Shown here one piece after another: positions 7,829 to 38,391 of a stretch of 64,000 bases of DNA. The stretch's first letter is position 1, and each line of letters opens with the position of its first letter. This stretch comes from Bacteroidia bacterium (GTDB lineage Bacteria > Bacteroidota > Bacteroidia > AKYH767-A > OLB10). Both the position numbers and the translations under genes were made by a program. Location of the stretch: the NCBI GenBank assembly GCA_037045145.1, contig JBAOIA010000012.1:857550-921549 (forward strand), given 5' to 3'. Below the pieces are notes generated by a model. That model saw only the letters and a list, made by a program, of their open reading frames with translations, had not been told where the DNA came from and made no database searches.

Positions 7829-7855
7829 CCCGCTTTTGTCAGCAAAAAATGCAAC

Positions 7856-8698
7856 GTGAAACACTTAATCTTTTTTTTATTCATACTTGTTTTTGCATCC
7901 TGTTCTAAAGAAACCGAAAAGGAAACTGTTTACACTACCTTTCAGGTTAATAAAACTGATACATTACATAGTATAAAAAGCTCCGTTAAGATGGTTTATA
8001 TTCCAGGAGGGGAATATAAACCATTCTACGGTTCTAACACCACATTGGTAAACGTAGCTCCTTTTTTAATGGACGAAAGAGCCGTGACTAATGAAGAATT
8101 TCTACAATTTGTCATTGCAAATCCTCAATGGCAAAAATCAAATATTAAAAGACTGTATGCAGACACCAACTATTTAAAGACATGGCCTACGGATATTTCA
8201 TTACCTGAAAATGCATTGAAAGATGCTCCTGTATGTAATGTATCATGGTTTGCTGCTAAAGCATATGCTCAAAGTGTTGGCAAACGTTTGCCAACATTGG
8301 ATGAATGGGAATTTGTAGCTATGGCAGATGAAGTTACAGCCAATGCAAGAAAGAAACCTAAATATTCAGATGACATCATTGATCTATATCTTCAAAAAAA
8401 CAGGCAATTCAAATCTGTAAAACAAAGCCCACCAAACTATTGGGGTGTTTATAATATGTTTGATCTGATATGGGAATGGACTGATGATTTTAATGCTGTA
8501 CTGACAACCGGTGATTCGCGAAATGGAGAATATAATGACAAGAGCCTTTTCTGTGCAGGTGGTGCTACTTCGGTAACTGATGTCATGAATTATGCAGCAT
8601 ACATGCGATTTGCACTCCGTACGTCCATCAAAGCTGATTACACTATTGGAAATTTAGGATTCCGGTGTGCTAATGACACAACAATAATTAAACAATAA
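7856..8698 (+). CDS. nirV: FGE-sulfatase (formylglycine-generating-enzyme-like) domain lipoprotein, NirV-like
   Basis: 'NVSWFAAKAYAQSVGKRLPTLDEWEFVA...GNLGFRCA' is FGE/SUMF1 domain sequence. It lies immediately downstream of nirK, as NirV does. Lipobox 'FASC'. Confidence 0.75.
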   Translation: MKHLIFFLFILVFASCSKETEKETVYTTFQVNKTDTLHSIKSSVKMVYIPGGEYKPFYGSNTTLVNVAPFLMDERAVTNEEFLQFVIANPQWQKSNIKRLYADTNYLKTWPTDISLPENALKDAPVCNVSWFAAKAYAQSVGKRLPTLDEWEFVAMADEVTANARKKPKYSDDIIDLYLQKNRQFKSVKQSPPNYWGVYNMFDLIWEWTDDFNAVLTTGDSRNGEYNDKSLFCAGGATSVTDVMNYAAYMRFALRTSIKADYTIGNLGFRCANDTTIIKQ

Positions 8699-8710
8699 CA
8701 CTATCATTTT

Positions 8711-9304
8711 ATGAAACTCATTTCACTTTTTTGCATTTCGCTTTTAATGCTTGTTTCCTGCAAAGAAAAAACAGAATCCAAGCAGGATACAGAAGCAACT
8801 GAACAACTTCCTTCCAACTCAATTTTTAATCTCACCTCTGACTGGCAAAATCAAGACGGGAAAACAATAAAGCTAAATGACTTACAAGGCAAGACGCTGG
8901 TAGTAGTTATGATTTATACAACATGTAAAACTGCCTGTCCGATTCTTGTTGCAAAAATGAAAACGATTGAATCTAAATTTGATCGAAAAGACATTGATAA
9001 AATCAACCTCGTTTTAGTTTCTATTGATCCGAAAACTGATACTCCTGAGCACCTTAAAGAATTTTCGATTAAAAATGAAATGACCGGACCACAATGGACC
9101 TTTTTACGCTCTGATGAAAATGCAACCAAAGAATTTGCAAACGTGCTTTCTATGAAATATAAAAAGATTTCACCAATAGATTTTTCACATTCAAATATTA
9201 TCAGCACATTTAAACCCAATGGAATTTTGGTAAGTCAGGAAGAAGGTGATATAAACGTTGATAAAGTTGTTGCAACTGTCAATCAAACAATCAGAAATAA
9301 ATAA
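8711..9304 (+). CDS. SCO1/SenC copper chaperone (thioredoxin-like), lipoprotein
   Basis: 'TTCKTACPIL' is the CxxxC copper-binding motif, followed by '...H' in a SCO-like fold. Lipobox 'LVSC'. Fits the nirK-nirV-senC context. Confidence 0.8.
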   Translation: MKLISLFCISLLMLVSCKEKTESKQDTEATEQLPSNSIFNLTSDWQNQDGKTIKLNDLQGKTLVVVMIYTTCKTACPILVAKMKTIESKFDRKDIDKINLVLVSIDPKTDTPEHLKEFSIKNEMTGPQWTFLRSDENATKEFANVLSMKYKKISPIDFSHSNIISTFKPNGILVSQEEGDINVDKVVATVNQTIRNK

Positions 9305-9395
9305 AAACACTTAATTAAGTTAACCATCGCTTTTTAACTTAAAATTACTTTTAATGAAGTAAGTAATACTATTTGTCTTCCAAAGCTATATTTGC

Positions 9396-10061
9396 ATGAT
9401 GGCAAAAAGATATTCTTTTTTTCAGTGGTTGTTTAGCTTTCTATATCCCGTCATCATACAAAAAGATCAATCGGACGTGAATAGCGTTTTAGAGACTACC
9501 TTGGAAAATGGCAAACTGGTTCTGAACGCTGCAAATGCCAATTACAGCTACGGAAGTCTTTACCGTGTTTTTATAAAAGCATTACTTCGTTTTAATATTA
9601 ACATTAAGAACAAAAAGAAAATTTTAGTTCTTGGCATGGGTGGTGGAAGTGTTGTAAAGTTTTTACTTAAAAACAATTCGCAAGCACAACTTGATGCAGT
9701 TGAAATTGACCGGAAGATTATTAGCATTGCTAAAGAAATGTTTGACCTGACTCCCACAGACAGATTAAATATTTATGCAACAGATGCCATAGAATTCACA
9801 CAGAAATGCACAGAGAAATACGACTTGATTTTAATAGACATTTTTATTGACGATGTTGTTCCTGAGTTTTGTTTCACAGAATCCATTTGGAAATCATTGC
9901 AAAACATTAGTCTTCCAACTTGTGACATTGTATTTAATGCCAGCATGAATCATAATTCCCAAAAACATAATCTTGAATCCCTCAGGCTGCTTAATATAAA
10001 AGAGAAAATCAAATTAGAACAAAACCTTTTTTTTCTGTTACAACCTACTGTGAGTAAGTAA
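9396..10061 (+). CDS. Spermidine-synthase-like (PABS-family) SAM-dependent methyltransferase-fold protein
   Basis: 'KILVLGMGGGSVVKFL...AVEIDRKIISIAKEMF...YDLILIDIF' is the spermidine-synthase-like Rossmann motif arrangement. Confidence 0.5.
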   Translation: MMAKRYSFFQWLFSFLYPVIIQKDQSDVNSVLETTLENGKLVLNAANANYSYGSLYRVFIKALLRFNINIKNKKKILVLGMGGGSVVKFLLKNNSQAQLDAVEIDRKIISIAKEMFDLTPTDRLNIYATDAIEFTQKCTEKYDLILIDIFIDDVVPEFCFTESIWKSLQNISLPTCDIVFNASMNHNSQKHNLESLRLLNIKEKIKLEQNLFFLLQPTVSK

Positions 10062-23636: not shown

Positions 23637-24221
23637 TTATAAATTTTTTAAAGCTTCTCTCAGCAAAACCTCAACAGACTGAAACTCACCACCACCAGCC
23701 ATCACTTTATTTAGCTCTTTTTCAGCCACATTTCTGTTAAAGCCAAGAGTAAGCAAAGCACTTAACGCTTCTTCCTTAATTGTATTGCCTTGTGTTAATA
23801 AAACCGGTGCAGAGGCGCCTGCCTTTCCTAACTTGTCTTTAAGGTCTATGACTATGCGCTGTGCGGTTTTGTCGCCTATGCCTTTAATTTTTTTAATTAC
23901 AGCCACATTGCCTGTGGTTATGGCACTTTGCAATTCTGTAGTGCTTAGCGATGAAAGCATGACTCTGGCAGTGCCCGGACCCACACCTGATACTGAAATA
24001 AGATTACGGAAAAGCTGTCTTTCATCTTCATCGGCAAAACCAAAAAGAAGGTGTGCATCTTCTTTAATAGATAAATGGGCATAAACTTTTGCACTCTGTG
24101 CATCTTTAAGTTTTGAATAAGTTTGCAGTGAGACCTGTAGTTGATATCCTACTCCATTGGCTTCAACAACAATGTAGGTGGCAGTTGCATGGGTTATTTT
24201 TCCTGAAATATAATCGTACAT
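23637..24221 (-). CDS. ruvA: Holliday junction DNA helicase RuvA
   Basis: 'MYDYISGKITHATATYIVVEANGVGYQLQVS' is the RuvA OB-fold N-terminus; the HhH motifs 'GIGDKTAQRIV' follow. Confidence 0.9.
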   Translation of the reverse strand: MYDYISGKITHATATYIVVEANGVGYQLQVSLQTYSKLKDAQSAKVYAHLSIKEDAHLLFGFADEDERQLFRNLISVSGVGPGTARVMLSSLSTTELQSAITTGNVAVIKKIKGIGDKTAQRIVIDLKDKLGKAGASAPVLLTQGNTIKEEALSALLTLGFNRNVAEKELNKVMAGGGEFQSVEVLLREALKNL

Positions 24222-25380: not shown

Positions 25381-26946
25381 TTATTCATTCTGCAATACTT
25401 TAGTCAAATCTGTTGCAGTAAAATTTTTGTCTTGTGTGTCGTATAAAGTATTGCCAATCATAAATGCATTTGATGTCGCTTCAACTTCCGCAATTCTTTT
25501 TCCCTCTTTGTTTACAATCAAAGTATTTTTATCTTTTGCGAAGAATTTAAAATCGTTTTTTCGTTCGTAACAAATACTCAACTCATTAAAGTCAATTGTT
25601 TTAGATATGCTAAGTTGTTCGTCAAGTGATAATGTCTTGTACTGATTTGTGAATACAAACAACTTTGTAGAGTCAGATTGATTGAGATTTATTAAATCAC
25701 CGCTTTGAGCTGTAATAAAAACTTGGCTTCCAACAAAGTATTTCAACTCTCCAAAATCGTCTTTTGGAAATGATTTTTGCAAAATTTCATTTCCAGTTTC
25801 CATTGAGTATTTTGCGACTCTGTTTTTAAAAGTAAAATATATGTCTTTGCTGTGTAGTTCAAAACTCAATATCGGGTCGTCTTTGACATCTATTATCGAT
25901 AAAAATATTTGATTACCTGTTTGCCCGTCAAAAGCAGCAAAAAATGGCTTACCAAAGTCTAACTGTCTGTTACCCATAAAAGCCATCCCTTTATTAACCA
26001 TATATATGATGTTTCCTTTTATGAAGATTGTAGATTTGCTTGCTATGTCATCAGGAAAAGGGAACTTCCATATAACTTCTCCCGTTTGCATATCAATTTT
26101 AACCAGTTTTTCTTTTGAGGCAAAATAAATATTGCTACTATCAACTAAAGTATTTGAAACTAAATCTCGAACCAAATTGTGTCCTGTGGACATTACAAAA
26201 GTACCAGTCAGTAAGCCCAATGCCGCACCAGCCGCATTAGCTGCAACGGTTCGTGAATAATCTTTTTTACCAGTAACAGAGTAGTAGTCCCATCCTATTC
26301 CTGTTTTTATATTTATTTTGTGCTAACCTGCTGCTGCAACAATTAAAGTGGAGTCATCTATATAAAAAACATCGTTCCAGCCAAATTCCCTAAATAAATA
26401 TCGTTTCCAAAGTATGTTACCATTTTTTAAATCTATTCCTTCGAGTTCGTTTGTATAGCCTGTTGAGTTTCTAAATTTATAGCCAATACCAATATTGTCC
26501 ACAGGGTCAACGAAATAAATATTGTTTTTGACTTTCCAAAGTTTTTCTCCTGTATTTATATCAAGGCAATAACTCTTATTTCCAAAAGAATGAATTATTG
26601 TTTTACTAAACTGTTGTAAATTACTCGCATGAAATGCGATTTTTTTACTCCATAAAACCTTTTGGTTTTTAATGTCGAATTGAATAATTTTTCCACTTTT
26701 GTCAAGCCATTTTCCGTTTTTACTCAAGCCCCTTAGCTGAACTGTTAAAAGTCCGGTTGTTTCGTCTAAAAACGTTTCATGAATTCTGTCAGGGAAAACA
26801 TATTCCATACCTTTTACAACAAAACTATCAACAAGGCTTTTGCCAAACACCTTTTCATTGCTTAAAACCTGAATTTGATTTTTCTGGCAATATCCCGCTG
26901 TTGTAATTAAAAGCGAAAATCCAAAAATTATTTTTTCTATTTTCAT
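25381..26946 (-). pseudogene. PQQ-like/BamB-like beta-propeller repeat lipoprotein gene interrupted by an in-frame TAG at 26323-26325
   Basis: The ORFs 26323..26946 and 25381..26220 are in the same frame. The 102 nt between them (26221..26322) translate without any stop ('...VAAAG*HKINIKTGIGWDYYSVTGKKDYSRTVAANAAGAALGLLTGT...'). Both halves carry 'G..LW' propeller-blade motifs. The downstream half begins at TTG only in the ORF track. Confidence 0.6.
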
Positions 26947-27258: not shown

Positions 27259-27666
27259 TGGGTATTGCCGAAGTGGCGGATTATTAGCACTAAAGTTCAA
27301 TAGAAATACTACTGTTGAACCTTGCACAATTGTTTCATAGAAGCACTTCTCCCGCCATTTTGGCAATACCGTGTTATAGCCAGTGGTTCTGTTAATCTGT
27401 CCTTGTAAACCATTGTCGTTATTGAGTTTCATTGTCTTTGTCGTGTTGGTTTGTGCGTGTTGCGGATTTTTAATATTTTCAGAAGAAGGGAGAAAAAAAT
27501 TGAATTTCTTCTTGGGTTGGGATAAGCACACTCTTTGCCAAGTTTTGGCTTGTGTGTCGGCTTCCCGAAGGGTCGGGACAGGCCGTGCGACTTGGCAATG
27601 TGTGTGCTTTTGTGCGTTGACTTTTCATTTGGCAAATGTAGTAAATGTTTTAAATTGAAACAAATG

Positions 27667-27698
27667 TTTGTTTTGTATTAAAACAATCTTTATCTTTG
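27667..27698 (+). promoter_or_regulatory. Putative promoter of the XRE-Panacea/toxin operon
   Basis: A -33 TTTG at 27667-27670 is followed after a 20-nt spacer by the -7 box TATCTTTG at 27691-27698. The ATG is at 27728. Confidence 0.35.
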
Positions 27699-27727: not shown

Positions 27728-28531
27728 ATGAACATAAAATTGTCACAAAAGCAAATAGGTCAGAGGATAACCGAACTTCGTAAAATGAAAGGGTTGTCTC
27801 AGGAAGATTTGGCTAAAAGTGTCAAAATTTCCCGACCGTCTTTGGCTCAAATTGAGTTAGGAAACAGAAGCGTTGATATTCTTGAATTGCAAAAACTGTC
27901 ATTGGTTTTGGAGTTTTCGCTGGACGATTTTATGTCTAAGGATTTTTCTGCAAGTCAAGATGTTGATTTGAAAGAAGAAAAAAAGGCAAAGAAAGAAGAA
28001 GAACGTATTTCAGTGCCAACCTTGCAAGTCAATAAGTTTAAAAATGTCTTGTTGTATATCCTTGAACGCTGTGCAGGTAAGCCAAATGTTGGTGAAACGG
28101 TTCTTTATAAGTTGCTCTATTTCTCGGACTTCAATTATTATGAATTGTATGAGGAACATTTAACAGGTGCTAAATATCGCAAATTACCTTATGGGCCAGT
28201 TCCGCAAAAATTAGATACAATCATTGGTCAAATGATTGAAAAAGGTCAGTTGCAAAGAGTGAAAACAGAATACCATGGTTATCCTCAAACTCGCTATTTG
28301 CCTTTAGAAAAAGCTGATTTAACTCAATTAAGGGCAAGTGAAAAAGAAATCATTGACAGGGTTATAGAACAAATGAGTGATTGGTCTGCTGCTGCAATCA
28401 GCAACTATTCTCATAAGGATATGCCTTGGCTTGCTTCAAAGGAAGGAGAAGAAATAAATTATGAATTAGCTTTTTATAGAGATGCTCCTTTCTCTGTGAG
28501 AAACTATGGAGATGAAATTGAAGAACAATGA
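27728..28531 (+). CDS. HTH-XRE DNA-binding protein with a C-terminal Panacea (DUF4065, SocA-like) domain; putative antitoxin
   Basis: The N-terminal 'QIGQRITELRKMKGLSQEDLAKSVKISRPSLAQIELG' is an XRE helix-turn-helix. The C-terminal 'VLYKLLYFSDFNYYELYEEHLTGAKYRKLPYGPVP' fits the Panacea domain consensus. Confidence 0.75.
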   Translation: MNIKLSQKQIGQRITELRKMKGLSQEDLAKSVKISRPSLAQIELGNRSVDILELQKLSLVLEFSLDDFMSKDFSASQDVDLKEEKKAKKEEERISVPTLQVNKFKNVLLYILERCAGKPNVGETVLYKLLYFSDFNYYELYEEHLTGAKYRKLPYGPVPQKLDTIIGQMIEKGQLQRVKTEYHGYPQTRYLPLEKADLTQLRASEKEIIDRVIEQMSDWSAAAISNYSHKDMPWLASKEGEEINYELAFYRDAPFSVRNYGDEIEEQ

Positions 28532-28872
28532 CCTTTGACGAATTAACCGAATTTAAAAAGGATTTGAAAAACCTTTTAAAAAAATACAGAACGCTAAATG
28601 ACGATTTAGATGTGGTTAAACGAGTGCTAGAAGTTACACCCGATGAACGACCACCGTTTAGTTTTCGTATTGATAATTTGGGTTTAGAAACGTGTATCAT
28701 CAAGGTTAAGAAAATTGCTTGTAAAGCATTGAAAGGAAGAGGGGTAAATTCAGGGTTGAGATTGATTTATGCTCACTTTCCTGAAGAACAAAAAATTACC
28801 TTCATTGAATTGTATCATAAGAATGACAAGGAAAATGAAGACAAAAAAAGAATAACGGATAATTTTAAATAG
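28528..28872 (+). CDS. RelE/ParE-superfamily-like toxin, translationally coupled to the Panacea protein
   Basis: An ATGA overlap joins it to the upstream gene. 'KALKGRGVNSGLRLIYAHFPEEQKITFIELYHKNDKEN' fits the RelE/ParE core pattern 'G..R.IY......I.fi.l.H'. Confidence 0.55.
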   Translation: MTFDELTEFKKDLKNLLKKYRTLNDDLDVVKRVLEVTPDERPPFSFRIDNLGLETCIIKVKKIACKALKGRGVNSGLRLIYAHFPEEQKITFIELYHKNDKENEDKKRITDNFK

Positions 28873-28881
28873 TCAAATATC

Positions 28882-29115
28882 ATGAGTAAGAAAAATCAAC
28901 ATGTAGTCCCAAGTGGAAAAGAATGGGCGGTAAAAGGCGAAGGCAATAGCCGTAAAACTGCTATTGTGAACACACAAGCAGAAGCAATTAAAATTGCAAG
29001 AGAGATTGCCATTAACAATAAATCAGAAGTCGTTATCCATCGTTCTGACGGAACCATTCGTGATAAAGACTCTTATGGAAACGACCCTAATCCACCTAAA
29101 GACAAAAAGCATTAA
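28882..29115 (+). CDS. DUF2188-family small protein
   Basis: 'HVVPSGKEWAVKGEGNSRKTAIVNTQAEAIKIAREIAINNKSEVVIHRSDGTIRDKDSYGNDP' matches the DUF2188 consensus as I recall it. Confidence 0.65.
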   Translation: MSKKNQHVVPSGKEWAVKGEGNSRKTAIVNTQAEAIKIAREIAINNKSEVVIHRSDGTIRDKDSYGNDPNPPKDKKH

Positions 29116-29118
29116 GCG

Positions 29119-29340
29119 ATGATAGACATAAGTAAACAATCCGTAAATATTGACTGCCCTGAATGTAAACGGTCAATTTCTGTAACTATTCGGCAAGTAG
29201 CTGATGAAGCACGGATAAAATGTTCTTGCGGTCAGGAAATACAGCTGAAAGACAGTAATGGCAACAATCAAAAGGCAATCAGAGATATCAATAAGTCCTT
29301 TAGGGAACTCGAAAACACATTAAAAAAATTCGGACGATGA
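29119..29340 (+). CDS. Small zinc-ribbon protein (CPEC...C-x-CGQ), hypothetical
   Basis: It has four Cys arranged CxxC...CxC. It sits 3 nt after the DUF2188 gene and shares an ATGA overlap with the next gene. Confidence 0.4.
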   Translation: MIDISKQSVNIDCPECKRSISVTIRQVADEARIKCSCGQEIQLKDSNGNNQKAIRDINKSFRELENTLKKFGR

Positions 29341-29822
29341 AAAATTTCTACCTCTACAATAACCGCGTTGAAATTGTCAACGACAACGGAAGCATTTTCA
29401 CAATCTACTTCAACGAACATAGCGGAAAGGTTTATTACCGCTTTAAGATTGGCACTTTATCCAAAATAAAGCACCCGGGTATTTATTTGGGTGAAGATGC
29501 TTATGGCACACATTACTTTTTGCACAATCATTATCACTATGGAAAGGCACACATCACAACGGCTGCCGATTTTATTGAAGGACAAGCGATTTACATTTAC
29601 AACGAAAAGTGCAGCAATACTCCTTTGAAAGTAATTGAAATTGGGTTAAATGAAATACTCAGGGGCGAAAGCTACAAGCCCATTACTTACAACTGCCAAA
29701 CCTATACCAACACGGCTTGCCATAATCAACGCAAAAGTGCCGATGCCGAAAAATGGGTAGGTGGGCTTGTGTTGGGTTCGCTTGCTTTCCTCTTGATAAG
29801 TGCCATTGCAGGAAATAAATAA
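29337..29822 (+). CDS. LRAT/PLAAT-like (circularly permuted NlpC/P60 papain-fold) protein with a C-terminal transmembrane helix; putative phospholipase/acyltransferase
   Basis: The H-box 'KHPGIYLGEDAYGTHYFLHN' (His...His) is followed about 60 aa later by 'ITYNCQTY', a Cys in an NCEHF-like position. The C-terminal 'WVGGLVLGSLAFLLISAIAG' is a transmembrane segment. The His-before-Cys order matches the LRAT family. Confidence 0.45.
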   Translation: MKNFYLYNNRVEIVNDNGSIFTIYFNEHSGKVYYRFKIGTLSKIKHPGIYLGEDAYGTHYFLHNHYHYGKAHITTAADFIEGQAIYIYNEKCSNTPLKVIEIGLNEILRGESYKPITYNCQTYTNTACHNQRKSADAEKWVGGLVLGSLAFLLISAIAGNK

Positions 29823-29858: not shown

Positions 29859-30473
29859 ATGAACAAGAATACAATCATCATCCTAATCGTTGTCATTGTG
29901 ATTATGGGATTAGGTCTTTGGAAGGTGAATGAAACCTTACAAGAAGAAAGAAAAAAGCGAAAGGAAGCCGAACAAGCCAATGTGCGGTTGATTATGGACA
30001 GCATACGCAGGCAAAAAGGTTTTACCGAAGCGGTGAAACTGGAACTGGATAATCTGGCCAAACATTTTGAAGACATTGAACCGAATGTAACGGCTAAAAT
30101 TGCTAAAGCCATTCAGTTGATAGAAATAAACCAAACCGAAAATGCCATTGAAGATTTGGCCGTAATCATGGAAAACCTGCTGGAAGATTATTACAAAAAA
30201 GACAACGGCTTTGTTGCCTTCTTGAAAAACCGCAGGGCGGACCTACATCATTTGCTTACCTATTGCAATAAGGACAAAAAAATAAGCGATGTAGAGTTGC
30301 AGTTTTTTCTTGGCGTAAAAACCATACGCAACAAAGAAGACCACACACTAAATCAAAAGCTGGACGATTACCTGAACGCTACCGGTTTAATTGTAGGCAT
30401 CGGTGCCATTGTAAAAATTGCTTCGTTTTGGAAACAGAAAAAGCAATTGGAACTTATCCCAGTAAGGGCGTAA
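29859..30473 (+). CDS. Membrane-anchored protein with an N-terminal TM helix, a coiled coil and a C-terminal alpha-helical domain carrying an Rx4H (HEPN/DUF4145-like) motif
   Basis: N-terminal TM 'IIILIVVIVIMGLGLW'; a KEAE-rich coiled coil; C-terminal 'FLGVKTIRNKEDHTLNQ', which matches Rx4-6H. Confidence 0.4.
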   Translation: MNKNTIIILIVVIVIMGLGLWKVNETLQEERKKRKEAEQANVRLIMDSIRRQKGFTEAVKLELDNLAKHFEDIEPNVTAKIAKAIQLIEINQTENAIEDLAVIMENLLEDYYKKDNGFVAFLKNRRADLHHLLTYCNKDKKISDVELQFFLGVKTIRNKEDHTLNQKLDDYLNATGLIVGIGAIVKIASFWKQKKQLELIPVRA

Positions 30474-30478
30474 TACAT

Positions 30479-31861
30479 TTACGCTTTTACCTTTTTGTAT
30501 TTTACTTTTTTCTCCGCAGCTATTTTCATGGGCTTTTCTTCAATGGAATATGCTTTGGTTTTTTTGCCGCCTTTTTTCCCCTGAGCTTGCCGAAGGGTTT
30601 CCTTTTCTGCTTTAATCTTTTCCAATAAAACACTGGCAGGTTCATCTTCCGGATTTTGTGCAACCAACTCGCCACGGAATGCTTTTGCCAAAATGCTTTG
30701 GGGAAGTTTATCCAGCATGGCTTTGGCTTTGGTGTAGCGGGCTTCTAACTTATCGGCAAATGCAAAGAGTTGTTCTACCTTTCGGACGATTTCTTTTTGT
30801 TCTACGACTTCAGGAAGCGGGATCGATAGTGTTTTTAGTTGGGTAGTGTTTATCCTAGGTCTTGTTGCACCGTGAATATTCAAAACCAATTGTTCAAATG
30901 AACGCATTGAAGTCAATACAAAAAGCAGAAAGAACTTGTCTATTTTATTTTCATCTGGTCGAATACAAAAGCAATCAGCTTTTGCAATTGCTTTAGTTGG
31001 TAAATAAGGTAAAATGCAAGCCCTTATTTCTTCAGAAATAAAAGAAGAGAAAATTATATCACCTTCGCCAACTGTATGACGCAATAAAGACTGATATTTT
31101 TCTTTTGTTATATAAGTTTCCTTTTCGTGAACAAAATATAGATGTTCAATATTTTCAAGACGAATAACTCGAATACCTTTATCAGTGTAATCAGCAGTTT
31201 TTAAATTTGAACCAAATGGGCCATCAAAAATTCCACCTTTCGGAATTACGGAGTTTAATTCAACTTCGTCCCATTCTTTAAATCCATTCTTCTTCTTCCA
31301 TTCCTCCGTCAACTTACCACTTACAGCAGCAGCCAACACACTTTGCCGAAATCGTTTTAAAATGATTGGTATTTTTTCTAACCGTTGTTTGTTGCTTTCT
31401 ACTTTTTGCATTACCGCATCTAGCTTGGCTACTATGCGGTGCTGCTCGTCAAGGGGTGGAAGGGGGATATGTATTTCTTTTTGTGCCTTTCCCGTTTGAA
31501 CAAACGGTTGGCCTGAACCCCCTTTTGGCCAAAAATTTTCATTATTCAATAAATAGAACAGGTAGTCAACATGTTTATCGTCATTTGCAAATGCTCTAAT
31601 TACCGAAGTATTAGCAATAGTTGTCCATTGCCCATTTGCTCTAAAACATTTACCACATCTTGCTCCAACAGCACTCAATATGATAGCTTCACCTTCTTCC
31701 TCAAAAAAATCAACTTTGCCATCAGGGCCAGTTCCACTAAATGCAATATATTTCCCATCTTCTTTGTAAACCTTTTTAGTTAAAGAAGAATTACCAGAAG
31801 TAATATTAACTACTTCACCTAATAACGGGAATTCCCAACCTTGTGGTAAACTATTCTCCAT
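30479..31861 (-). CDS. hsdS: Type I restriction-modification specificity subunit
   Basis: There are two target-recognition domains, each preceded by the conserved 'LP.GWE...LGE' opening, and a central coiled-coil repeat. Its start overlaps the stop of hsdM. Confidence 0.85.
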   Translation of the reverse strand: MENSLPQGWEFPLLGEVVNITSGNSSLTKKVYKEDGKYIAFSGTGPDGKVDFFEEEGEAIILSAVGARCGKCFRANGQWTTIANTSVIRAFANDDKHVDYLFYLLNNENFWPKGGSGQPFVQTGKAQKEIHIPLPPLDEQHRIVAKLDAVMQKVESNKQRLEKIPIILKRFRQSVLAAAVSGKLTEEWKKKNGFKEWDEVELNSVIPKGGIFDGPFGSNLKTADYTDKGIRVIRLENIEHLYFVHEKETYITKEKYQSLLRHTVGEGDIIFSSFISEEIRACILPYLPTKAIAKADCFCIRPDENKIDKFFLLFVLTSMRSFEQLVLNIHGATRPRINTTQLKTLSIPLPEVVEQKEIVRKVEQLFAFADKLEARYTKAKAMLDKLPQSILAKAFRGELVAQNPEDEPASVLLEKIKAEKETLRQAQGKKGGKKTKAYSIEEKPMKIAAEKKVKYKKVKA

Positions 31862-33257
31862 TGAATTCCAGTAGGGTTAATATTTCTTTTAAATCGTCCA
31901 CCACAGCTTCCAGTTCTGCAATGGCTTCTGTGGCAAGGTCGTTGGGTTCGGGTAAGCTGTCGGCATCTTCTATGCTTTCGTCTCTCAGCCAGGTAATGTC
32001 GAGTTTGTAATTCCGTTTTGTAATTTCCTCTATTGTAAAACAACGGAAACGCCCTGTTTCGCCTTCGTCTTTTCGTTTGCTTTTTCCGTTAGGGTCGGTG
32101 CCGTAGCATTTTTCAAAATCGGTAAAATGCTTGTCGGTTAGCGGACGGTCTTTTTTGGTAATGCCTTCAATGTTGCTGCGGTTGTCGTAAATCCAAACTT
32201 TTTCGGTGGGCAAACCTTTCTGAAAGAAAATCACATTGGCTTTTACACCCTGTGCGTAGGGAGTAAAGGTTCCTCTGGGCAAACGCACAATGGTGTGCAG
32301 GTTGCAATCCTGCATCAGTATTTCAAATACTTCACCTGCTTTGTCTTCAAACAACACATTGTCGGGCAACACTATGGCAGCACGTCCACCCGGTTTCAGA
32401 GTGCTCATAATGTGCTGCACAAAATTCAACTGCTTGTTGCTGGTTTCTACCGTAAAATCATCCCGTTCGGGAACCTGGTTTGCTCCTTTTGTTCCAAAGG
32501 GTGGATTGGCCAACACCACATCAAACCTGGTGCTGTCGGGTGTGTTGTAAATGGTATCGCCCAGTTTTATTTTCGGGGTAACGCCATGCAAATACATATT
32601 CATCAAAGCCAGTCGCCTTGGCCTTGCCACCAACTCCTGTCCGTAATAGGTTTTTTCACGAATGCGTTTTACATCTTCACGGGGCAGCGCACCTTTGCTT
32701 TCCTGCATCAGCCATTCATAAGCCGATACTAAGAAACCACCTGTGCCGCAACTGGGGTCGGAAATGGTAAATGAACTTTTGCCTCTCGGGTCGGGCTTCA
32801 TTAACCGCACCATGCTTTGTATCAAAGGTCGTGGTGTAAAGTATTGCCCTGCACCCTTTTTGCCTTCGCTGGCGGCTTTTTCCAGCAGTCCCTCAAAGGC
32901 AGCACCTTTTACATCCACATCCATGCTCGTCCATTCGTCTTCTTCAATCAGGTTCAGCAGTTTTTTCAAACTCACCGGGTTGTTGAAGCGATTTTGTGCT
33001 TGTGTAAATATTTCACCTAACAGACCTTGCTCTTTGGCCAGTTCACGCAGGGTGTCGGTGTAATGGTCCATCAAATCGCCACCGCTTAATTTGGTCAGCG
33101 ATTGCCAGTTGTATTTTTTATGCAGATGCACTTCTTTTTCATCTGCCATTTTCAGGAAGAGAAGAAACGACAGTTGCTCTATGTAATCGTTATAATCAAT
33201 GCCCTCGTGGCGAAGCGTATGGCAAAAGCCCCACAATTTATTTACTACATCACTCAT
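31851..33257 (-). CDS. hsdM: Type I restriction-modification N6-adenine DNA methyltransferase subunit
   Basis: HsdM_N-type N-terminus; the motif I region 'DPSCGTGGFL' and motif IV 'NPPFG' are present. Confidence 0.9.
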   Translation of the reverse strand: MSDVVNKLWGFCHTLRHEGIDYNDYIEQLSFLLFLKMADEKEVHLHKKYNWQSLTKLSGGDLMDHYTDTLRELAKEQGLLGEIFTQAQNRFNNPVSLKKLLNLIEEDEWTSMDVDVKGAAFEGLLEKAASEGKKGAGQYFTPRPLIQSMVRLMKPDPRGKSSFTISDPSCGTGGFLVSAYEWLMQESKGALPREDVKRIREKTYYGQELVARPRRLALMNMYLHGVTPKIKLGDTIYNTPDSTRFDVVLANPPFGTKGANQVPERDDFTVETSNKQLNFVQHIMSTLKPGGRAAIVLPDNVLFEDKAGEVFEILMQDCNLHTIVRLPRGTFTPYAQGVKANVIFFQKGLPTEKVWIYDNRSNIEGITKKDRPLTDKHFTDFEKCYGTDPNGKSKRKDEGETGRFRCFTIEEITKRNYKLDITWLRDESIEDADSLPEPNDLATEAIAELEAVVDDLKEILTLLEFNGE

Positions 33258-33258
33258 A

Positions 33259-33945
33259 TTATGCTGCTATTGCTAAGTTTATTTCTTGAATCAATTTGGT
33301 GTAATCGTCTGCAAATACTTTTTTGAATTTGTTCAGTCCGCCTCTGTCAGCAAAAACGGGTAATTCCTGCAAATCTTCTTCGTCTAAAGTCATGTTTTGT
33401 TTTAGATGTTCTTTGATGTATTCCATCCATTTTTGTTGTTCGTCATTCAGCCTTTTTCCGGTTGTTACTTTCTGAATGGCTTGGTTCACCCGTTCTTCGG
33501 GGCTTAACAAAGGTTCGGTTTCTTTGGCTGCATGCTTTACCATGCTGATGATGTCAACGGCATCTTTCTGATAAACGATTTTGTGTGCCTTTTGCAAACT
33601 GGCTTCATCATAATTGCTCTCTTTTAGTTTTTGCCTTAGTTCGTTCAAAGCATTGGTGTTCCAATCTTTTGGCTTGTTTAACAAAATGCTGATGGCGGCA
33701 ATTTCATTTTCTTTTCGTTTTACAAATTCAGAAAATGCCAGTAAATAATCCATTGGTTGTAAACCGTATCTTCCTTCTGCTTCAAACAACACCATCGAAC
33801 TCACTTCGTCCTGCACCTCATACCCAACCAGAAAAACCTTTTTGGCTCTTTCGTAGTCCACCAATAGCTTTTGAAACTGCTCGTTTCGGAGCAATTCCAT
33901 CACACTGGTGAAGCTTTCAAATATTTCGGGTAACGATTTTGCCAT
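33259..33945 (-). CDS. HsdR C-terminal-domain-like protein (EcoEI_R_C/DUF3387-type helical domain) encoded as a separate ORF
   Basis: It starts in a TAATG overlap with the stop of the helicase ORF. The sizes add up: 683 aa plus 228 aa is about the length of a full HsdR. The domain identity is inferred from position and predicted helical composition, not from a recognised motif. Confidence 0.45.
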   Translation of the reverse strand: MAKSLPEIFESFTSVMELLRNEQFQKLLVDYERAKKVFLVGYEVQDEVSSMVLFEAEGRYGLQPMDYLLAFSEFVKRKENEIAAISILLNKPKDWNTNALNELRQKLKESNYDEASLQKAHKIVYQKDAVDIISMVKHAAKETEPLLSPEERVNQAIQKVTTGKRLNDEQQKWMEYIKEHLKQNMTLDEEDLQELPVFADRGGLNKFKKVFADDYTKLIQEINLAIAA

Positions 33946-35996
33946 TACTTATACTTATCAAAAAAATTAGAAATCTGCTCGGCAAATTTTCCCATATCGC
34001 CATCAGGAATATAGGTTTTGAATTTGTCACGGGCATTTCCACTCATATCTTTTTCAATTCTATGCAGTCGTTTTGCCAAACGCTTGGCATTGGCTCTGCG
34101 GTCTTCGTTGTTGTATATTTTTTCTATCAGTTCTTTAATGGTTATGGTATCGGTTCCCGGTGGGTCAATTTTAAAGTTGTAGCTGGCATCTTTAAAATAC
34201 TTTATCAATGTTCCGTTGAAACAATCAAAGATTACAAAGTGAGTTTTGCCGATGTCATCACATTTTCGTGTTCCTCTGCCCAACATTTGTTCCCAAAGAA
34301 TACGGCTTTTAACAGGTCGGAGAAAAACAATGTATTCCAGAGAAGGAATGTCAACTCCTGTGCTTAACATATCAACGGTAACCACAATTTTCGGATTGGG
34401 TCTGTTTCTAAACTCTTTAATTTTTTTCAAAGGTCTGTCCACCGTTGGGCTGCCTGTAATCTTTGCCACAAAATCGTCACCCTGATTAAAAACCTGTTTG
34501 CAAATGCTCACCAAACGGTCAGCATGTGAAATCATGGGTATGTCGTTGGATGCAAAAATCAAGGTTTTTGGAAAACGCCCTGTGCGTTGTTCCCACTCGT
34601 CAGTATATTTTTTTAGTTCTTCAATTATTTTTTGGTTGGTGTCGGGGGCTGTAATTTTTTCTTCAATCTCTGTTGAAGTAAATTCCCGCTCATCTTCCAA
34701 TTGGTCAATTTGTTCTCTGCCTGTTTCAGTGTCAATCATCCCCACTTGTTCGCCTTCTTTCAAAAAAGCTCCGTTCATCAACACTTCCGAATTGATAGCC
34801 ACAGCATCATAATCTACCAAAAACCCTTCGTCAATGGCTTGTTGCAATGGATAATTGAAAATAGGTTTTCCAAAATAGGCAACCGTATGTGATGCAGGCG
34901 TTGCAGTTAAACCAACTTTAACGGCATCAAAATGATTTAAAACATTTCGCCAAACATTCGTTTCTTTTGAAGTGTAACCTCTGTGGCACTCGTCAGCAAT
35001 AATCAAATCGAAAGCATGCGATGGAATTGAAAGCGTTTCTGCATCATCGTCTCCACTTCCTGCCTGCTCGGCAGACAGGTCTTCATCCTCACCAAATGCA
35101 CCCGCTTTGCCGTAAAGGTTAATTGCCATTCGCTGGATGGTGCAGACATAAAGAAAGGTTTTTGTTCCATCAGGATTTGTCAAATAGGAATTAGGCAACA
35201 CAGTTGGGTCGTATGCTTCCCCTTCAAAATCTTCTTTCTTAAAGCGTTGTGAGTATAATTCGTATTCGTCTTTAAACTTGATATTTCTCGGTGTGTCAAA
35301 TGATGCAAAAGCAGTAACGGCTTGTGCGGCTAACGACTTTCTATCAACCAAGAACAAAATGCGTTTAGCATAACCGGAAGCCAACATTCGGTAAACAAGA
35401 TTAACTGTGGTGAAAGTTTTTCCTGTTCCTGTTGCCATTGCTAAAAGCATCAGGCGTTTGCCGTCTTCCAAATTATTTTCAAAAGCTTGTATAGCTTCTT
35501 TTTGGTAAGGCCTAAGTCCGGGAGTATTAATGGGCCTGACTTTCAGCCATTGCAAAGCCGTATCTCGTTTTGCGTTAAATAAAGTTTCCATCGCTTCTGG
35601 CTTATGAAAACTGTAAATCTGTCGGCTTAAGTTTTTGTTGTCTCTTACATCTAAATAGTAAATCAATTCACCATTAGAAGAATACAAAAATGGAACTCGA
35701 TATTGATTCCATTCACCAATTGTCTTATCTGCACCTTTTGAATATCGCTTGGCTTGTTCCAACACATTTGCTGCACCAACCTCCAATTTCTTTGCTTCAA
35801 CCACACCTAATAAATTTCCATTTACAACCAAAGCATAGTCCGCAGGTCCGTTTTTTGTTTGCAATTCCTCAATTGCGTGATTTGTCAAAATAGACAAGTC
35901 CATTCCCTCAGAGTAAGGAATGATATGCCAACCGGCAGCTATTAGCTGCTGGTCAATTCTTTTCTTTCTTGTTATTTTCTCTGATTCGTATGTCAT
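33945..35996 (-). CDS. hsdR: Type I restriction enzyme R subunit (N-terminal nuclease plus SF2 helicase core)
   Basis: The HSDR_N-type nuclease N-terminus comes first. The helicase motifs follow: 'MATGTGKT' (motif I), 'DECHRG' (motif II) and 'QMLGRGTR' (motif VI). Confidence 0.85.
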   Translation of the reverse strand: MTYESEKITRKKRIDQQLIAAGWHIIPYSEGMDLSILTNHAIEELQTKNGPADYALVVNGNLLGVVEAKKLEVGAANVLEQAKRYSKGADKTIGEWNQYRVPFLYSSNGELIYYLDVRDNKNLSRQIYSFHKPEAMETLFNAKRDTALQWLKVRPINTPGLRPYQKEAIQAFENNLEDGKRLMLLAMATGTGKTFTTVNLVYRMLASGYAKRILFLVDRKSLAAQAVTAFASFDTPRNIKFKDEYELYSQRFKKEDFEGEAYDPTVLPNSYLTNPDGTKTFLYVCTIQRMAINLYGKAGAFGEDEDLSAEQAGSGDDDAETLSIPSHAFDLIIADECHRGYTSKETNVWRNVLNHFDAVKVGLTATPASHTVAYFGKPIFNYPLQQAIDEGFLVDYDAVAINSEVLMNGAFLKEGEQVGMIDTETGREQIDQLEDEREFTSTEIEEKITAPDTNQKIIEELKKYTDEWEQRTGRFPKTLIFASNDIPMISHADRLVSICKQVFNQGDDFVAKITGSPTVDRPLKKIKEFRNRPNPKIVVTVDMLSTGVDIPSLEYIVFLRPVKSRILWEQMLGRGTRKCDDIGKTHFVIFDCFNGTLIKYFKDASYNFKIDPPGTDTITIKELIEKIYNNEDRRANAKRLAKRLHRIEKDMSGNARDKFKTYIPDGDMGKFAEQISNFFDKYK

Positions 35997-36459: not shown

Positions 36460-38391
36460 CTAGAATAACTTATTTATCTCAGCAAACATTTTCTCAAAGT
36501 TGTCTAAGGTTTTTGGTTTGAAGTAGCTTTTGTCAACTCCAAGTTGGTTGAGTTTATTAGCTGGTCTGTAATGATTAAACCTTTCTTTACCAATTACTTT
36601 ATTTATCTGCTTTAATATAGTGTCAATAGTATTGTCAAGGTCTGCAACTTTGATAGTTGGATGTTCTTTATCGAATGCAGCATTGAAGATTTTCAAATAT
36701 TCTTCCTTATCGAAAAGGTCTTCAATGTCAGCTGTTGTTTTACCGTTGTTAGCGAACTCATTAAAGAATCTAATATTTTTCTCTTTAATAATTTTGTGCA
36801 TAATCAGGTCTGCAACTTTTTGCTTTCCTTTTTGGTCGGTGAATGTGTCAAGTAAACAAGCAACATTTAATTTAGAGCCACGAAGCAATGAAATAAAAGT
36901 TGAAACTTTGTCTAAACCTCCAACAGGAACAATTGTGATGTTGTCTTTAAGGAAAGTTCTTTTTTCTGATTCAAGTATGCTTGATATTAAAGTCAAGTAA
37001 ATTAAATCAGCCGGACCTTCAACAAGCAAATTGTTTTTAGATACAAATAAATTTTGTGCTATGTCGTAGCCCAATGCAGCTTGTAATGGGAATAATGTGT
37101 TAGGGTCTTTCTCTTGTATGGAATCGGAAATTATCGTTCCTTCCTCTGTCTCGAAACAAGTGCGAACTCGGTCAAGATGTTCTGTTTCTACCATAAAGGG
37201 AGAGTGTGTCGTATAGATTATTTGATACTTTTTAGAAAGATCGTCAAAGAAGCGAAGTAAATCAGCTTGTGCAGAGGCGTGTAGATTTAAACCTGGTTCA
37301 TCCAATAGAAGAACATAATCGGAGTTTTTATCAGCTTGAATTTTGCTGAACCAAATTATGAAGGAGAAAAACCAATTAAATCCTTTGCTCCGTCTATCTA
37401 AAGGCAGAGTTATTTTATGTCGTTGACTTTTAACTCGTATATCGAGTATTTTTTCTGGCTGTCCTTGTGGGTTAGTTGTATTCTGAATTTTGAATTCAAT
37501 GTCAAGATTCTTATTGGTTGACCAATATTTGAAAATTTCATTAGTTATTTTATTGGAAGATGCTTCCAATAGAGCGATATATTTTTCGTATTCCTGTTCG
37601 GTTGCATTTAATATTTCTTCAGGTTTTATTCTTGCTAATTCAAATAACGCCTTTGAAGTTTTATCTTTTTCGTTTGTAGGTGGTTCATTTTTCAGTTTAT
37701 TGATGTTTATTTTTCCTCTTAATGGGTAATAATCATCAAAATACCAAAACTTAGGCATTTTGGCTTTTATCCAATTTTTAGCAATATAGGATTCTAACAA
37801 ATTTGTCCAAGATGCCGTGTTGTAGCCTCCGTCAATAATTCTTTTTATTTCTGTTTTGAACGCTGCTAAATCATCATCCCCCTCTACGGCAACAATGTTT
37901 GCAATGTCTTTCAATGATGCGGTTTTCTTTATGGCTTCTTTGGTTGCATCTGATAGAGCATATTCAGAAACTTGAAGCTCTAAAAACTTTTTCTGATTAG
38001 CAGAAAGTCCTCCAAATGTGCTTGTTTTAGATTTATAATGACAGGTATAAGTAAACTCTTTTGTTGTAAAAACGCCTTTACCAAATTCTTCTTCAATCTC
38101 CTTTAACAAGTCAGTCGAAATTTCATACTTGCATTGAATAATATCGCAGTCATCTTCGCTATGTTGAAAATCAATTAACTCATTTCTTGGGTAGTCTTGA
38201 GTTATGTCGAAAACAAAGTCTGGGTCTGCGGTAAAATAGTTTGTCTTTGCAATGGCAGTTAGAAAAGAAGTTTTTCCTGCTTCATTCATTCCAACAATAG
38301 TCGTAATTGAAGGGTCAATATTTACGGTTTGTGATTTCTGAATACTTTTGTATTTGTCAATCGTAACTTGTATTAATTTTATCATTGTCAT
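36460..38391 (-). CDS. OLD-family (Overcoming Lysogenization Defect) ATP-dependent nuclease: ABC-type ATPase fused to a C-terminal TOPRIM domain
   Basis: Walker A 'GMNEAGKTS'; ABC signature and Walker B 'LLLDEPGLNLH'; the C-terminal 'LLVEGPADLIYL...VPVGGLDK' are TOPRIM motifs. No UvrD-like partner is adjacent. Confidence 0.7.
   Translation of the reverse strand: MTMIKLIQVTIDKYKSIQKSQTVNIDPSITTIVGMNEAGKTSFLTAIAKTNYFTADPDFVFDITQDYPRNELIDFQHSEDDCDIIQCKYEISTDLLKEIEEEFGKGVFTTKEFTYTCHYKSKTSTFGGLSANQKKFLELQVSEYALSDATKEAIKKTASLKDIANIVAVEGDDDLAAFKTEIKRIIDGGYNTASWTNLLESYIAKNWIKAKMPKFWYFDDYYPLRGKININKLKNEPPTNEKDKTSKALFELARIKPEEILNATEQEYEKYIALLEASSNKITNEIFKYWSTNKNLDIEFKIQNTTNPQGQPEKILDIRVKSQRHKITLPLDRRSKGFNWFFSFIIWFSKIQADKNSDYVLLLDEPGLNLHASAQADLLRFFDDLSKKYQIIYTTHSPFMVETEHLDRVRTCFETEEGTIISDSIQEKDPNTLFPLQAALGYDIAQNLFVSKNNLLVEGPADLIYLTLISSILESEKRTFLKDNITIVPVGGLDKVSTFISLLRGSKLNVACLLDTFTDQKGKQKVADLIMHKIIKEKNIRFFNEFANNGKTTADIEDLFDKEEYLKIFNAAFDKEHPTIKVADLDNTIDTILKQINKVIGKERFNHYRPANKLNQLGVDKSYFKPKTLDNFEKMFAEINKLF

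Follow-up and report, generated by a model that had tools for sequence, protein, structure and literature searches.

A tail-anchored LRAT/PLAAT-like protein and its gene cassette in a Bacteroidota defence island

What kind of enzyme is encoded between a regulator module and a restriction system in a Bacteroidota genome, and against what might it be directed? The question is raised by a stretch of 64,000 nucleotides (nt) from a Bacteroidia bacterium (GenBank assembly GCA_037045145.1, contig JBAOIA010000012.1, positions 857,550 to 921,549 of the forward strand), the whole of which we refer to as the window. Near its middle lies a small gene whose product, here called LRATL, recalls lecithin retinol acyltransferase (LRAT) and the phospholipase/acyltransferases of the PLAAT family. 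To our knowledge, nearly all known PLAAT/LRAT enzymes come from animals and the viruses of animals, where they act as phospholipases or acyltransferases in retinoid storage, N-acyl-phosphatidylethanolamine synthesis, organelle breakdown and picornavirus entry. A preliminary description of this DNA had read the gene as encoding a membrane-anchored, LRAT/PLAAT-like permuted NlpC/P60 protein, and the fold, the profile matches, a collinear alignment to PLAAT3 and a conserved anchor all support that assignment. LRATL has the permuted papain-like fold, conserved residues Cys120, His46, His63 and Tyr113, and a C-terminal membrane anchor. A role as a membrane-attacking suicide or defence effector is plausible.

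Fold, family and catalytic residues

The features of the enzyme gene are as follows, with the retention of each residue counted in an alignment of 110 diverse members that are ~20-50% identical to the window protein.

29337..29822, + strand: PLAAT-like enzyme gene (LRATL), ATG start, 161 amino acids (aa); the end coordinate includes the stop codon
29472..29474, + strand: His46 codon CAC, predicted catalytic base, in the H-box KHPGIYLG; kept in 109/110; pairs with PLAAT3 H23
29523..29525, + strand: His63 codon CAC, predicted third triad residue, on the next beta-strand (YFLH); kept in 107/110; pairs with PLAAT3 H35
29673..29675, + strand: Tyr113 codon TAC, 7 residues before the nucleophile, at the oxyanion-hole position of NlpC/P60 enzymes; kept in 108/110; pairs with PLAAT3 Y106
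29694..29696, + strand: Cys120 codon TGC, predicted nucleophile, in the NC motif at the N-terminus of helix 120-129; kept in 107/110; pairs with PLAAT3 C113
29757..29813, + strand: C-terminal transmembrane anchor, residues 141-159, with a 2-residue tail after it; Kyte-Doolittle score 2.18; model helix 135-158 continuous; pairs with the PLAAT3 anchor

A word-indexed search returned 105 close relatives at 50-99% identity, nearly all of them 158-165 aa long, and an exhaustive profile search covering 1.84 billion cluster representatives returned 244 homologue clusters at E <= 1e-3, mostly of similar length and aligned almost end to end. Where the source organism is named, it is a Bacteroidota metagenome-assembled genome, the exceptions being one Leptospiraceae bin and one Saccharibacteria bin. 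The near-invariant positions in the 110-member alignment are G30, R35, K37, H46, G48, G52, H63, Y113, N119, C120, Q121 and S134 (N119 and S134 are each kept in 106 members), and H65 is retained in 95.

The preliminary description had named three motifs in the order and spacing of the LRAT family, and they stand exactly where it put them: HPGIYLG at residues 46-52, THYFLHN at residues 58-64 and YNCQTY at residues 118-123. The predicted catalytic residues within them are near-invariant, and the motifs are not chance matches. Its numbering of the candidate catalytic residues (His46, His59/63, Cys120) was also right, and H46, H63 and C120 are indeed conserved; His59 is not. Since the latter is kept in only 10 of the 110 members, as against 107 for H63, the conserved second histidine is H63, and we reject His59 as a catalytic residue.

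The AlphaFold2 model of LRATL, built with 46 homologues, has a mean predicted local distance difference test score (pLDDT) of 90.1 and a predicted template-modelling score (pTM) of 0.81. It places H46 on a strand at residues 45-53 and H63 on a strand at 59-65, begins a helix (120-129) at C120, and ends in a helix that spans residues 135-158. When this model is compared with the PDB by Foldseek, the first eight matches are human PLAAT3 (also known as AdPLA, HRASLS3 or H-REV107), PLAAT4, and an HRASLS3/LRAT chimera, the best of them with probability 1.0, target-normalised template-modelling (TM) scores of 0.70-0.73 and root-mean-square deviations (rmsd) of 3.0-3.7 A. Across entries 4fa0, 7zom, 4dot, 7c3z, 7zot and 2kyt, the probability is 0.99-1.0, the target-normalised TM score 0.55-0.73 and the rmsd 3.0-4.2 A. 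The overlay on LRAT/PLAAT structures that had been proposed as a check is, then, in favour of a permuted papain-like fold. Among viral proteins (BFVD), the best fold matches are picorna-like polyproteins, together with Marseillevirus and Pithovirus proteins annotated as lecithin retinol acyltransferase. An H-box/NC domain is known from some picornavirus 2A proteins.

A search of the PDB with the window LRATL sequence alone gave only noise, and a profile was needed. With the 110-member profile, the matches are PLAAT2 (4dpz; E = 5.9e-7), PLAAT3 (1.7e-6 to 4.3e-6), the LRAT chimera (5.5e-5) and PLAAT4 (5e-3). The Pfam LRAT family (PF04970) does not match the window protein at E <= 1; when the members are scanned one by one, it is matched by 46 of the 110 at E <= 0.1 (best 4.6e-12), and one relative, P0236, carries a precomputed PF04970 match. 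The same scan touches the YaeF/YiiX family C92 in 12 of 110 members. YiiX (Peptidase_C92) differs from LRATL in having Glu as its third triad residue and in not being tail-anchored, and it is a far weaker match to LRATL than LRAT/PLAAT; putative lipid-binding pockets have been described in the permuted NlpC/P60 proteins YaeF and YiiX (PMC3142127).

Aligned directly by hhalign, LRATL and PLAAT3 match with 96.3% probability and E = 1.7e-9 over the catalytic helix and the anchor. With a relaxed alignment threshold the match reaches 96.8% over 131 columns and is collinear from LRATL 22-161 to PLAAT3 3-158; this alignment pairs H46 with H23, H63 with H35, Y113 with Y106, C120 with C113, S134 with S127, and anchor with anchor. 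That is, a profile comparison, the other check that had been suggested, brings the catalytic His and Cys residues of the two proteins together in the same order. In the human PLAAT3 sequence used here, the H-box and residues 89-136 are confirmed by the PDB profile alignments.

The H-box and NC motif can be recognised in full: KHPGIYLG with G48 and G52 near-invariant, the Y113-x6-C120 spacing, and a helix that starts from the Cys in the model. According to Xu et al. (PMC3142127), the catalytic residues of NlpC/P60 enzymes are Cys, His, a third polar residue and Tyr. In LRATL these occur in the permuted order, H46, then H63, then C120, and PLAAT2, PLAAT3/AdPLA/H-Rev107, PLAAT4 and LRAT have the same permuted papain-like fold, the same His-His-Cys triad and the same placing of Tyr. 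LRATL and PLAAT3 also have in common the NC motif, a conserved Ser that follows the Cys at a distance of 14 residues, a single C-terminal transmembrane anchor at a similar distance from the nucleophile (21 residues in LRATL, 20 in PLAAT3), and an almost equal length (161 versus 162 aa). The differences are no less clear. Identity to PLAAT/LRAT enzymes is only 12-19%; LRATL has ~20-40 extra N-terminal residues relative to PLAAT3, which form additional beta-strands and include the near-invariant G30, R35 and K37; the hairpin that joins the two His strands has 5 more residues; the long disordered loop at residues ~39-57 of PLAAT3 has no counterpart; and the nucleophile motif is NCQT[YF] where PLAAT3 has NCEHF. 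Unlike the human PLAATs, moreover, LRATL is bacterial (Bacteroidota) and is found in defence islands and mobile elements.

As to the hydrophobic C-terminal helix noted in the preliminary description, the top-scoring 19-residue Kyte-Doolittle window in LRATL is residues 141-159 (VGGLVLGSLAFLLISAIAG), the segment is conserved across relatives, and it aligns with the PLAAT3 anchor. The N-terminal part of the window protein has no hydrophobic segment in the same scan. Among the 110 members, a strongly hydrophobic C-terminal 19-mer occurs in 79, mostly within ~20 residues of the C-terminus, and an N-terminal one in none. Because the hydrophobic 19-mer is C-terminal and never N-terminal, LRATL is tail-anchored, and because there is no signal peptide, its catalytic domain should stay in the cytoplasm. 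We conclude with high confidence that LRATL belongs, as a divergent bacterial protein, to the LRAT/PLAAT branch of the permuted NlpC/P60 superfamily, and that the PPPDE proteins are more distant relatives of it.

The cassette, its zinc-ribbon gene and its regulators

Six genes, head to tail on the + strand, form the cassette that contains LRATL. Its other genes and flanking signals, and the genes downstream of it, are listed here; HTH stands for helix-turn-helix and ORF for open reading frame.

27667..27698, + strand: Bacteroidetes-type promoter-like motif (TTTG..TAnnTTTG), 30 nt upstream of the cassette
27728..28531, + strand: HTH (XRE) + SocA/Panacea antitoxin-type regulator, first cassette gene (SocA_Panacea 1.9e-22, HTH_3 2.2e-12)
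28528..28872, + strand: 114-aa putative toxin partner of the Panacea antitoxin, overlapping the antitoxin stop (RelE at E = 0.059 only; phrog_5869 3.8e-6)
28882..29115, + strand: DUF2188 protein, 77 aa (PF09954 4.4e-25; PADLOC candidate PDC-S16 1e-36; phrog_3220)
29119..29340, + strand: 73-aa zinc-ribbon protein (CPEC...CSCG and a C-terminal helix), its stop overlapping the LRATL start by 4 nt (ATGA)
29859..30473, + strand: 204-aa protein with an N-terminal transmembrane helix, last cassette gene; an ORF with no significant Pfam matches
30462..30490, + strand: terminator-like hairpin at the cassette end
30479-31861, - strand: hsdS (Pfam/PADLOC)
31851-33257, - strand: hsdM (Pfam/PADLOC)
33259-33945 and 33945-35996, - strand: hsdR as two ORFs (Pfam/PADLOC)
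36460-38391, - strand: OLD-family ATPase-TOPRIM nuclease (Pfam/PADLOC)

The preliminary description had set the gene inside a defence island, and its surroundings bear this out: the HTH-Panacea toxin-antitoxin (TA) pair and DUF2188 (PDC-S16) lie upstream, hsdS/M/R and the OLD nuclease downstream. The island is flanked by ruvA (23637-24221) and a malic enzyme gene, and base composition gives no sharp boundary to it in the window. Rfam and tRNA scans find no RNA gene in the island, and there is thus no sign of an RNA antitoxin. A sigma-70 promoter scan of the window stays at chance level. The classes of promoter and terminator motif listed above occur in the window at chance frequency as well, so that only their positions are suggestive. 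The upstream motif is one of two lying back to back, at 27633-27664 (- strand) and 27667-27698 (+ strand), in a ~780-bp ORF-poor gap upstream of the cassette; this opposed pair suggests a divergent promoter region.

We compared 37 loci, which are cited here by their L numbers. The zinc-ribbon gene is the most constant neighbour of LRATL, lying directly upstream with the same 4-nt overlap in most of them, and the pairing persists in the deepest branch of the subfamily (46-55% LRATL identity; L004/21, L022, L024), where the other cassette genes are gone. All homologues of the zinc-ribbon protein have C13, C16 and C37, and at least 90% of them have C35. The protein matches none of the families in Pfam or NCBIfam. 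Its AlphaFold2 model (pLDDT 70) consists of a ribbon at residues 8-42 and a low-confidence helix at 49-72, and it matches only generic ribbons (the ZitP finger, Tim15, ribosomal proteins), which is uninformative on mechanism.

The remaining cassette genes are less constant: the HTH-Panacea/114-aa pair, the DUF2188 gene and the 204-aa gene are variably present across loci, the 114-aa gene always accompanying the HTH-Panacea gene. The 204-aa protein, which has a long helical middle, a hydrophobic C-terminal stretch and a weak PADLOC match to PbeA (E = 2.9e-4), is encoded near LRATL in ~7 loci, in one of them (L013) upstream of it. DUF2188 stands beside the zinc-ribbon/LRATL pair in many loci, at 53-92% identity, either before or after the zinc-ribbon gene; examples are the window (28882-29115), L025 (5696-5935) and L035-L037. 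Identities to the window copies vary from gene to gene within a locus. For example, SocA, DUF2188 and the enzyme are 97%, 57% and 72% identical in L014, and 73%, 92% and 76% identical in L011. From such mosaics it follows that the cassette genes are separately assorting modules.

Two classes of upstream regulator cover most loci with readable upstream sequence. In the first, an HTH-Panacea TA pair lies upstream (the window, L001-3, L006, L009, L011, L014, L016-18, with an MqsA-like variant in L025). In the second, an XRE-HTH gene and a Peptidase_M78 gene lie upstream, usually on the opposite strand (L004/21, L022, L024, L012, L015, L035, L036, L037, and fused in L029). L008, with Gabija-like genes upstream, fits neither class. 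CapH and CapP are a repressor and a DNA-damage-activated protease that control CBASS (cyclic-oligonucleotide-based antiphage signalling) and other defence operons (Lau et al. 2022, 10.1101/2022.04.27.489752), and the described CapH/CapP operons explicitly include DUF2188 operons (10.1101/2022.04.27.489752). The second class has the layout described in this preprint, with an HTH gene and an M78/IrrE-type metallopeptidase gene upstream and, in most cases, divergent. The layout is not present in the window, where the same-strand HTH-Panacea TA pair occupies that place.

Other neighbours of LRATL include SIR2-HerA (L003), Gabija-like OLD + UvrD (L008), Abi_2 (L035) and an HD-domain phosphohydrolase (HD + HD_assoc; L024), and mobile genes, namely relaxases, coupling proteins, integrases and transposases, lie near it in L004 and L006. 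Several single loci are of interest in their own right. In L037 a CBASS operon of CD-NTase and TIR-STING (7676-9669) lies directly downstream of LRATL on the same strand, and the DUF2188/LRATL block sits between a divergent HTH + M78 (CapH/CapP-like) pair and these CBASS genes. In L012 (4619-10125) LRATL occurs without the zinc-ribbon gene, between CapH/CapP-like regulators and genes for Multi_ubiq, an E1-like protein (DUF6791-ThiF) and a large protein with a deaminase domain; the three downstream genes scanned include none for a JAB peptidase. In L018 (5796-6023) and L029 (5787-6017), a different 75-76-aa protein (NSGKxWSxxDLKKLEKLA, no Pfam match) replaces DUF2188 and the zinc-ribbon protein, its gene lying directly upstream of LRATL and overlapping the LRATL start. 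A conserved 56-aa basic protein (MAKNGKSGDGHRNGA...) with no family match adjoins LRATL in L023 (354-524) and L024 (6517-6687), upstream of it in one of these loci and downstream in the other.

A distant LRATL branch, at 25-30% identity, consists of solo chromosomal genes without cassette neighbours in the 4 loci examined. A citrate synthase gene is on the same contig in 3 of the 4 (L031, L033, L034), where the branch may represent a chromosomal variable spot or a housekeeping part of the LRATL family. In L031 and L034, the distant homologue adjoins a very large protein, which by Pfam is secreted by the type IX secretion system in L031.

Possible function and competing explanations

What might such a protein do? 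Permuted NlpC/P60 enzymes act on lipids (PMC12994826, PMC3142127), and the short, conserved distance from nucleophile to anchor in LRATL favours a membrane-embedded substrate. By analogy with its relatives, a lipid acyl group is the probable substrate, although we hold this with less assurance than the family assignment. LRATL would then be a tail-anchored thiol acyl-hydrolase/acyltransferase of the LRAT/PLAAT branch, its soluble domain held on the cytoplasmic side, at the inner leaflet of the cytoplasmic membrane. H46 would activate Cys120, and H63 would orient it, for attack on the acyl ester of a phospholipid (phosphatidylethanolamine or phosphatidylglycerol) in the cytoplasmic leaflet, and an acyl-Cys120 thioester would form. 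The acyl chain could pass to water, as in a phospholipase A1/2 reaction that yields lysophospholipid and fatty acid, or to an acceptor amine or alcohol.

From the gene context we infer how such an activity may be deployed. LRATL and its translationally coupled zinc-ribbon partner would be cargo of mobile defence islands, silenced by a proteolytically labile HTH repressor module, which may be HTH-Panacea in the window and a CapH/CapP-like HTH + M78 protease elsewhere. Infection or DNA damage would inactivate the repressor, LRATL would be made, and damage to the producer's own membrane would lead to abortive infection or growth arrest. The zinc-ribbon protein would act as an accessory regulator, adaptor or sensor and not as a life-saving antitoxin. 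That LRATL is an inducible defence or suicide effector is a suggestion for which we put the chances at somewhat below even. For the combined proposal, a PLAAT-like tail-anchored acyl-hydrolase/transferase that serves as a stress-induced membrane-damaging effector, we regard the case as evenly balanced.

Two known groups of effectors offer a comparison. Tox-Act1 and TseH are permuted NlpC/P60 antibacterial effectors of type VI secretion systems with demonstrated phospholipase activity (PMC12994826), and the toxicity of Tox-Act1 depends on its catalytic His and Cys (PMC12994826). Like them, LRATL would be a bacterial permuted NlpC/P60 enzyme of biological conflicts. Tox-Act1 and TseH, however, are secreted, act from the rival's periplasm and are countered by membrane immunity proteins, whereas LRATL has no secretion-associated domain or neighbourhood, is tail-anchored and is predicted to face the producer's cytoplasm; in the Foldseek, profile and Pfam searches that we ran, it groups with LRAT/PLAAT and not with the Tox-Act1/TseH clades. 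The CapV patatin effectors of CBASS are closer in proposed logic, namely a phospholipid-degrading enzyme turned on the cell's own membrane upon infection. CapV-type effectors and LRATL also have in common an association with CapH/CapP-like regulators, and in L037 LRATL adjoins the CD-NTase + TIR-STING CBASS genes. Their folds and chemistry are unrelated (a patatin Ser-Asp dyad versus a papain-like Cys-His-His triad), and LRATL lacks a nucleotide-sensing domain, so that its activation would be transcriptional or through the zinc-ribbon partner, and not by a cyclic nucleotide as in CapV.

Several observations weigh against the proposal of a membrane-damaging effector. Both substrate and phenotype rest on homology and gene context. 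The sole Pfam match of the window protein is to Peptidase_C97 (PPPDE, PF05903; E = 0.0012, 19.1 bits versus a cut-off of 29.2), and in the member-by-member scan this family is touched by 56 of 110 (best 7e-8), so that a peptidase or isopeptidase chemistry is still conceivable. None of the NCBIfam, PHROG and PADLOC models (PADLOC-DB v2) covers LRATL. No LRATL relatives were found in IMG/VR viral contigs, while the genome search gave 22 loci. The distant-branch loci show no defence context in the few genes visible there. Finally, only the short gaps, a single promoter-like motif and a single terminator-like hairpin point to co-transcription of the cassette, and the HTH modules could be mere neighbouring mobile-element genes.

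LRATL might instead be a non-lethal membrane remodeller or a protein acyltransferase, with membrane phospholipid as acyl donor, making N-acyl-phosphatidylethanolamine-like lipids or fatty-acylating proteins, and thereby altering the envelope (entry exclusion, stress tolerance) or tethering a target. LRAT and the PLAATs are in the first place acyltransferases, with the same thioester intermediate (PMC12994826, PMC11989323), and the MARTX RID domain is a permuted papain-like lysine fatty-acyltransferase (PMC10924143, PMC3142127). The solitary distant members in loci with citrate synthase, and the tolerance of LRATL for loss of its partner gene, would also be at home in this explanation. The window subfamily, however, stands consistently among abortive-infection-type systems and behind stress-released repressors, which is a better fit to an inducible harmful effector than to a constitutive remodeller, and we identified no acceptor-specific feature. 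We consider a remodelling or protein-acylating role rather improbable.

The C97 matches raise a second alternative, in which LRATL is a PPPDE/DeSI-like cysteine (iso)peptidase that works at the membrane surface and cuts, instead of a lipid acyl ester, a peptide or isopeptide bond, for instance in a membrane protein or a ubiquitin-like conjugate. The L012 locus agrees with it, in that LRATL there adjoins a Multi_ubiq, E1-like and deaminase system with no JAB peptidase in the genes scanned; such a ubiquitin-like neighbourhood is found in one locus only. PPPDE/DeSI proteins and LRATL do belong to the same permuted papain-like superfamily, with His before Cys and Tyr 7 residues before Cys. On the structural side, however, neither PPPDE structure, 2wp7 or 3ebq, appears in the top 50 Foldseek matches of the LRATL model, in which PLAAT and LRAT take the first eight places, and the 110-member profile reaches PPPDE1/2 only at E = 0.018, over 24 residues, versus ~1e-6 for the PLAATs. 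PPPDE1 has Phe at the third triad position (PMC3142127) and so lacks a polar residue there; because H63 is near-invariant in LRATL, its state at this position is that of LRAT/PLAAT. PPPDE proteins also have no transmembrane anchor, whereas that of LRATL is conserved and aligns with PLAAT3's. With the window match below the gathering score, the PPPDE structures outside the top 50 and H63 conserved, we reject membership of the PPPDE family, and we judge (iso)peptidase activity unlikely.

Might the zinc-ribbon gene and LRATL instead form a classical type II TA addiction pair, that is, a constitutive membrane toxin with an essential neutraliser that stabilises a mobile element and has no part in phage defence? 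There is a 4-nt overlap between the two genes, and their linkage persists down to 46-55% identity, when every other cassette gene has been lost; their divergences are correlated (r = 0.86, n = 15); and they are carried on mobilisable or integrative elements. The pattern of loss is the reverse of that expected of such a pair. Single in-frame stops have arisen independently in the zinc-ribbon gene of three lineages (TAA replaces codon 42 in L006/7/20 and codon 6 in L037, and TAG replaces codon 55 in L035), in genes that are otherwise well conserved and that adjoin an intact LRATL with H46, H63 and C120. In L008, L009, L012 and L018 the zinc-ribbon gene is absent. Since an antitoxin should not go before its toxin, the zinc-ribbon protein is not a classical antitoxin, and we think an addiction pair unlikely. 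It follows rather that LRATL is harmless until induced or activated, or that its small partner serves as activator, adaptor or sensor. The LRATL gene is itself decayed in L028 and L029, as expected of costly accessory cargo.

A last suggestion, that the motifs arose by chance and that the ORF is spurious or without function, to which the small size and the lack of any curated family match above threshold might point, is refuted by 244 same-length homologue clusters, near-invariant catalytic residues, a confident model and conserved synteny.

How much of this is new? The enzyme superfamily is already known, as are phospholipase effectors as an idea. The literature that we searched on LRAT, PLAAT or NlpC-P60 in phage defence gave no description of the LRATL family. 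Apparently new are the occurrence of the full PLAAT architecture in a bacterial family, the zinc-ribbon gene as partner of that family, and the regularity with which the family is found behind Panacea-HTH or CapH/CapP-like switches, in defence islands and mobilisable elements. The architecture is complete in that LRATL has the catalytic tetrad, the conserved Ser after the catalytic helix and an equally spaced tail anchor. If LRATL is a membrane-attacking effector, it adds a Cys-His-His thiol acyl-hydrolase class to the effectors of abortive infection, provides a tractable 161-aa model for the attack of a tail-anchored PLAAT on its own bilayer, and may represent a bacterial root of the eukaryotic PLAAT family. 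For the uncharacterised DUF2188 (PDC-S16) neighbourhoods that are under CapH/CapP-like control, LRATL also offers a specific candidate function.

Eukaryotic tail-anchored PLAATs rupture organelle membranes and take part in virus-host interactions. A bolder proposal, which we consider possible but on the doubtful side, is that the DUF2188, zinc-ribbon and LRATL block is an abortive-infection system of Bacteroidota, directed against phages or plasmids, that has so far gone unrecognised. LRATL, as its effector, would be the counterpart, and possibly an evolutionary relative, of those eukaryotic proteins; destruction of a CapH-like or Panacea-type HTH repressor upon infection or DNA damage would turn it on, and it would then dismantle the membrane from the cytoplasmic side. 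If the abortive-infection reading is true, PLAAT-type phospholipases would join the immune effectors that are common to bacteria and animals.

Possibly interrupted genes in the island

Two further observations concern genes of the island other than the cassette. The window hsdR (33259-35996, - strand) consists of a 683-aa ORF with HSDR_N, ResIII and Helicase_C domains and an abutting 228-aa ORF with EcoEI_R_C, while the HsdR homologue in L037 has all these domains in one protein; the window hsdR may be a split or inactivated gene, or the interruption may be a sequencing error. At the left edge of the island, by ruvA, two adjacent ORFs of 279 and 207 aa (25381-26946, - strand) have weak, partial PQQ_2/beta-propeller matches and may be pieces of one degraded gene.

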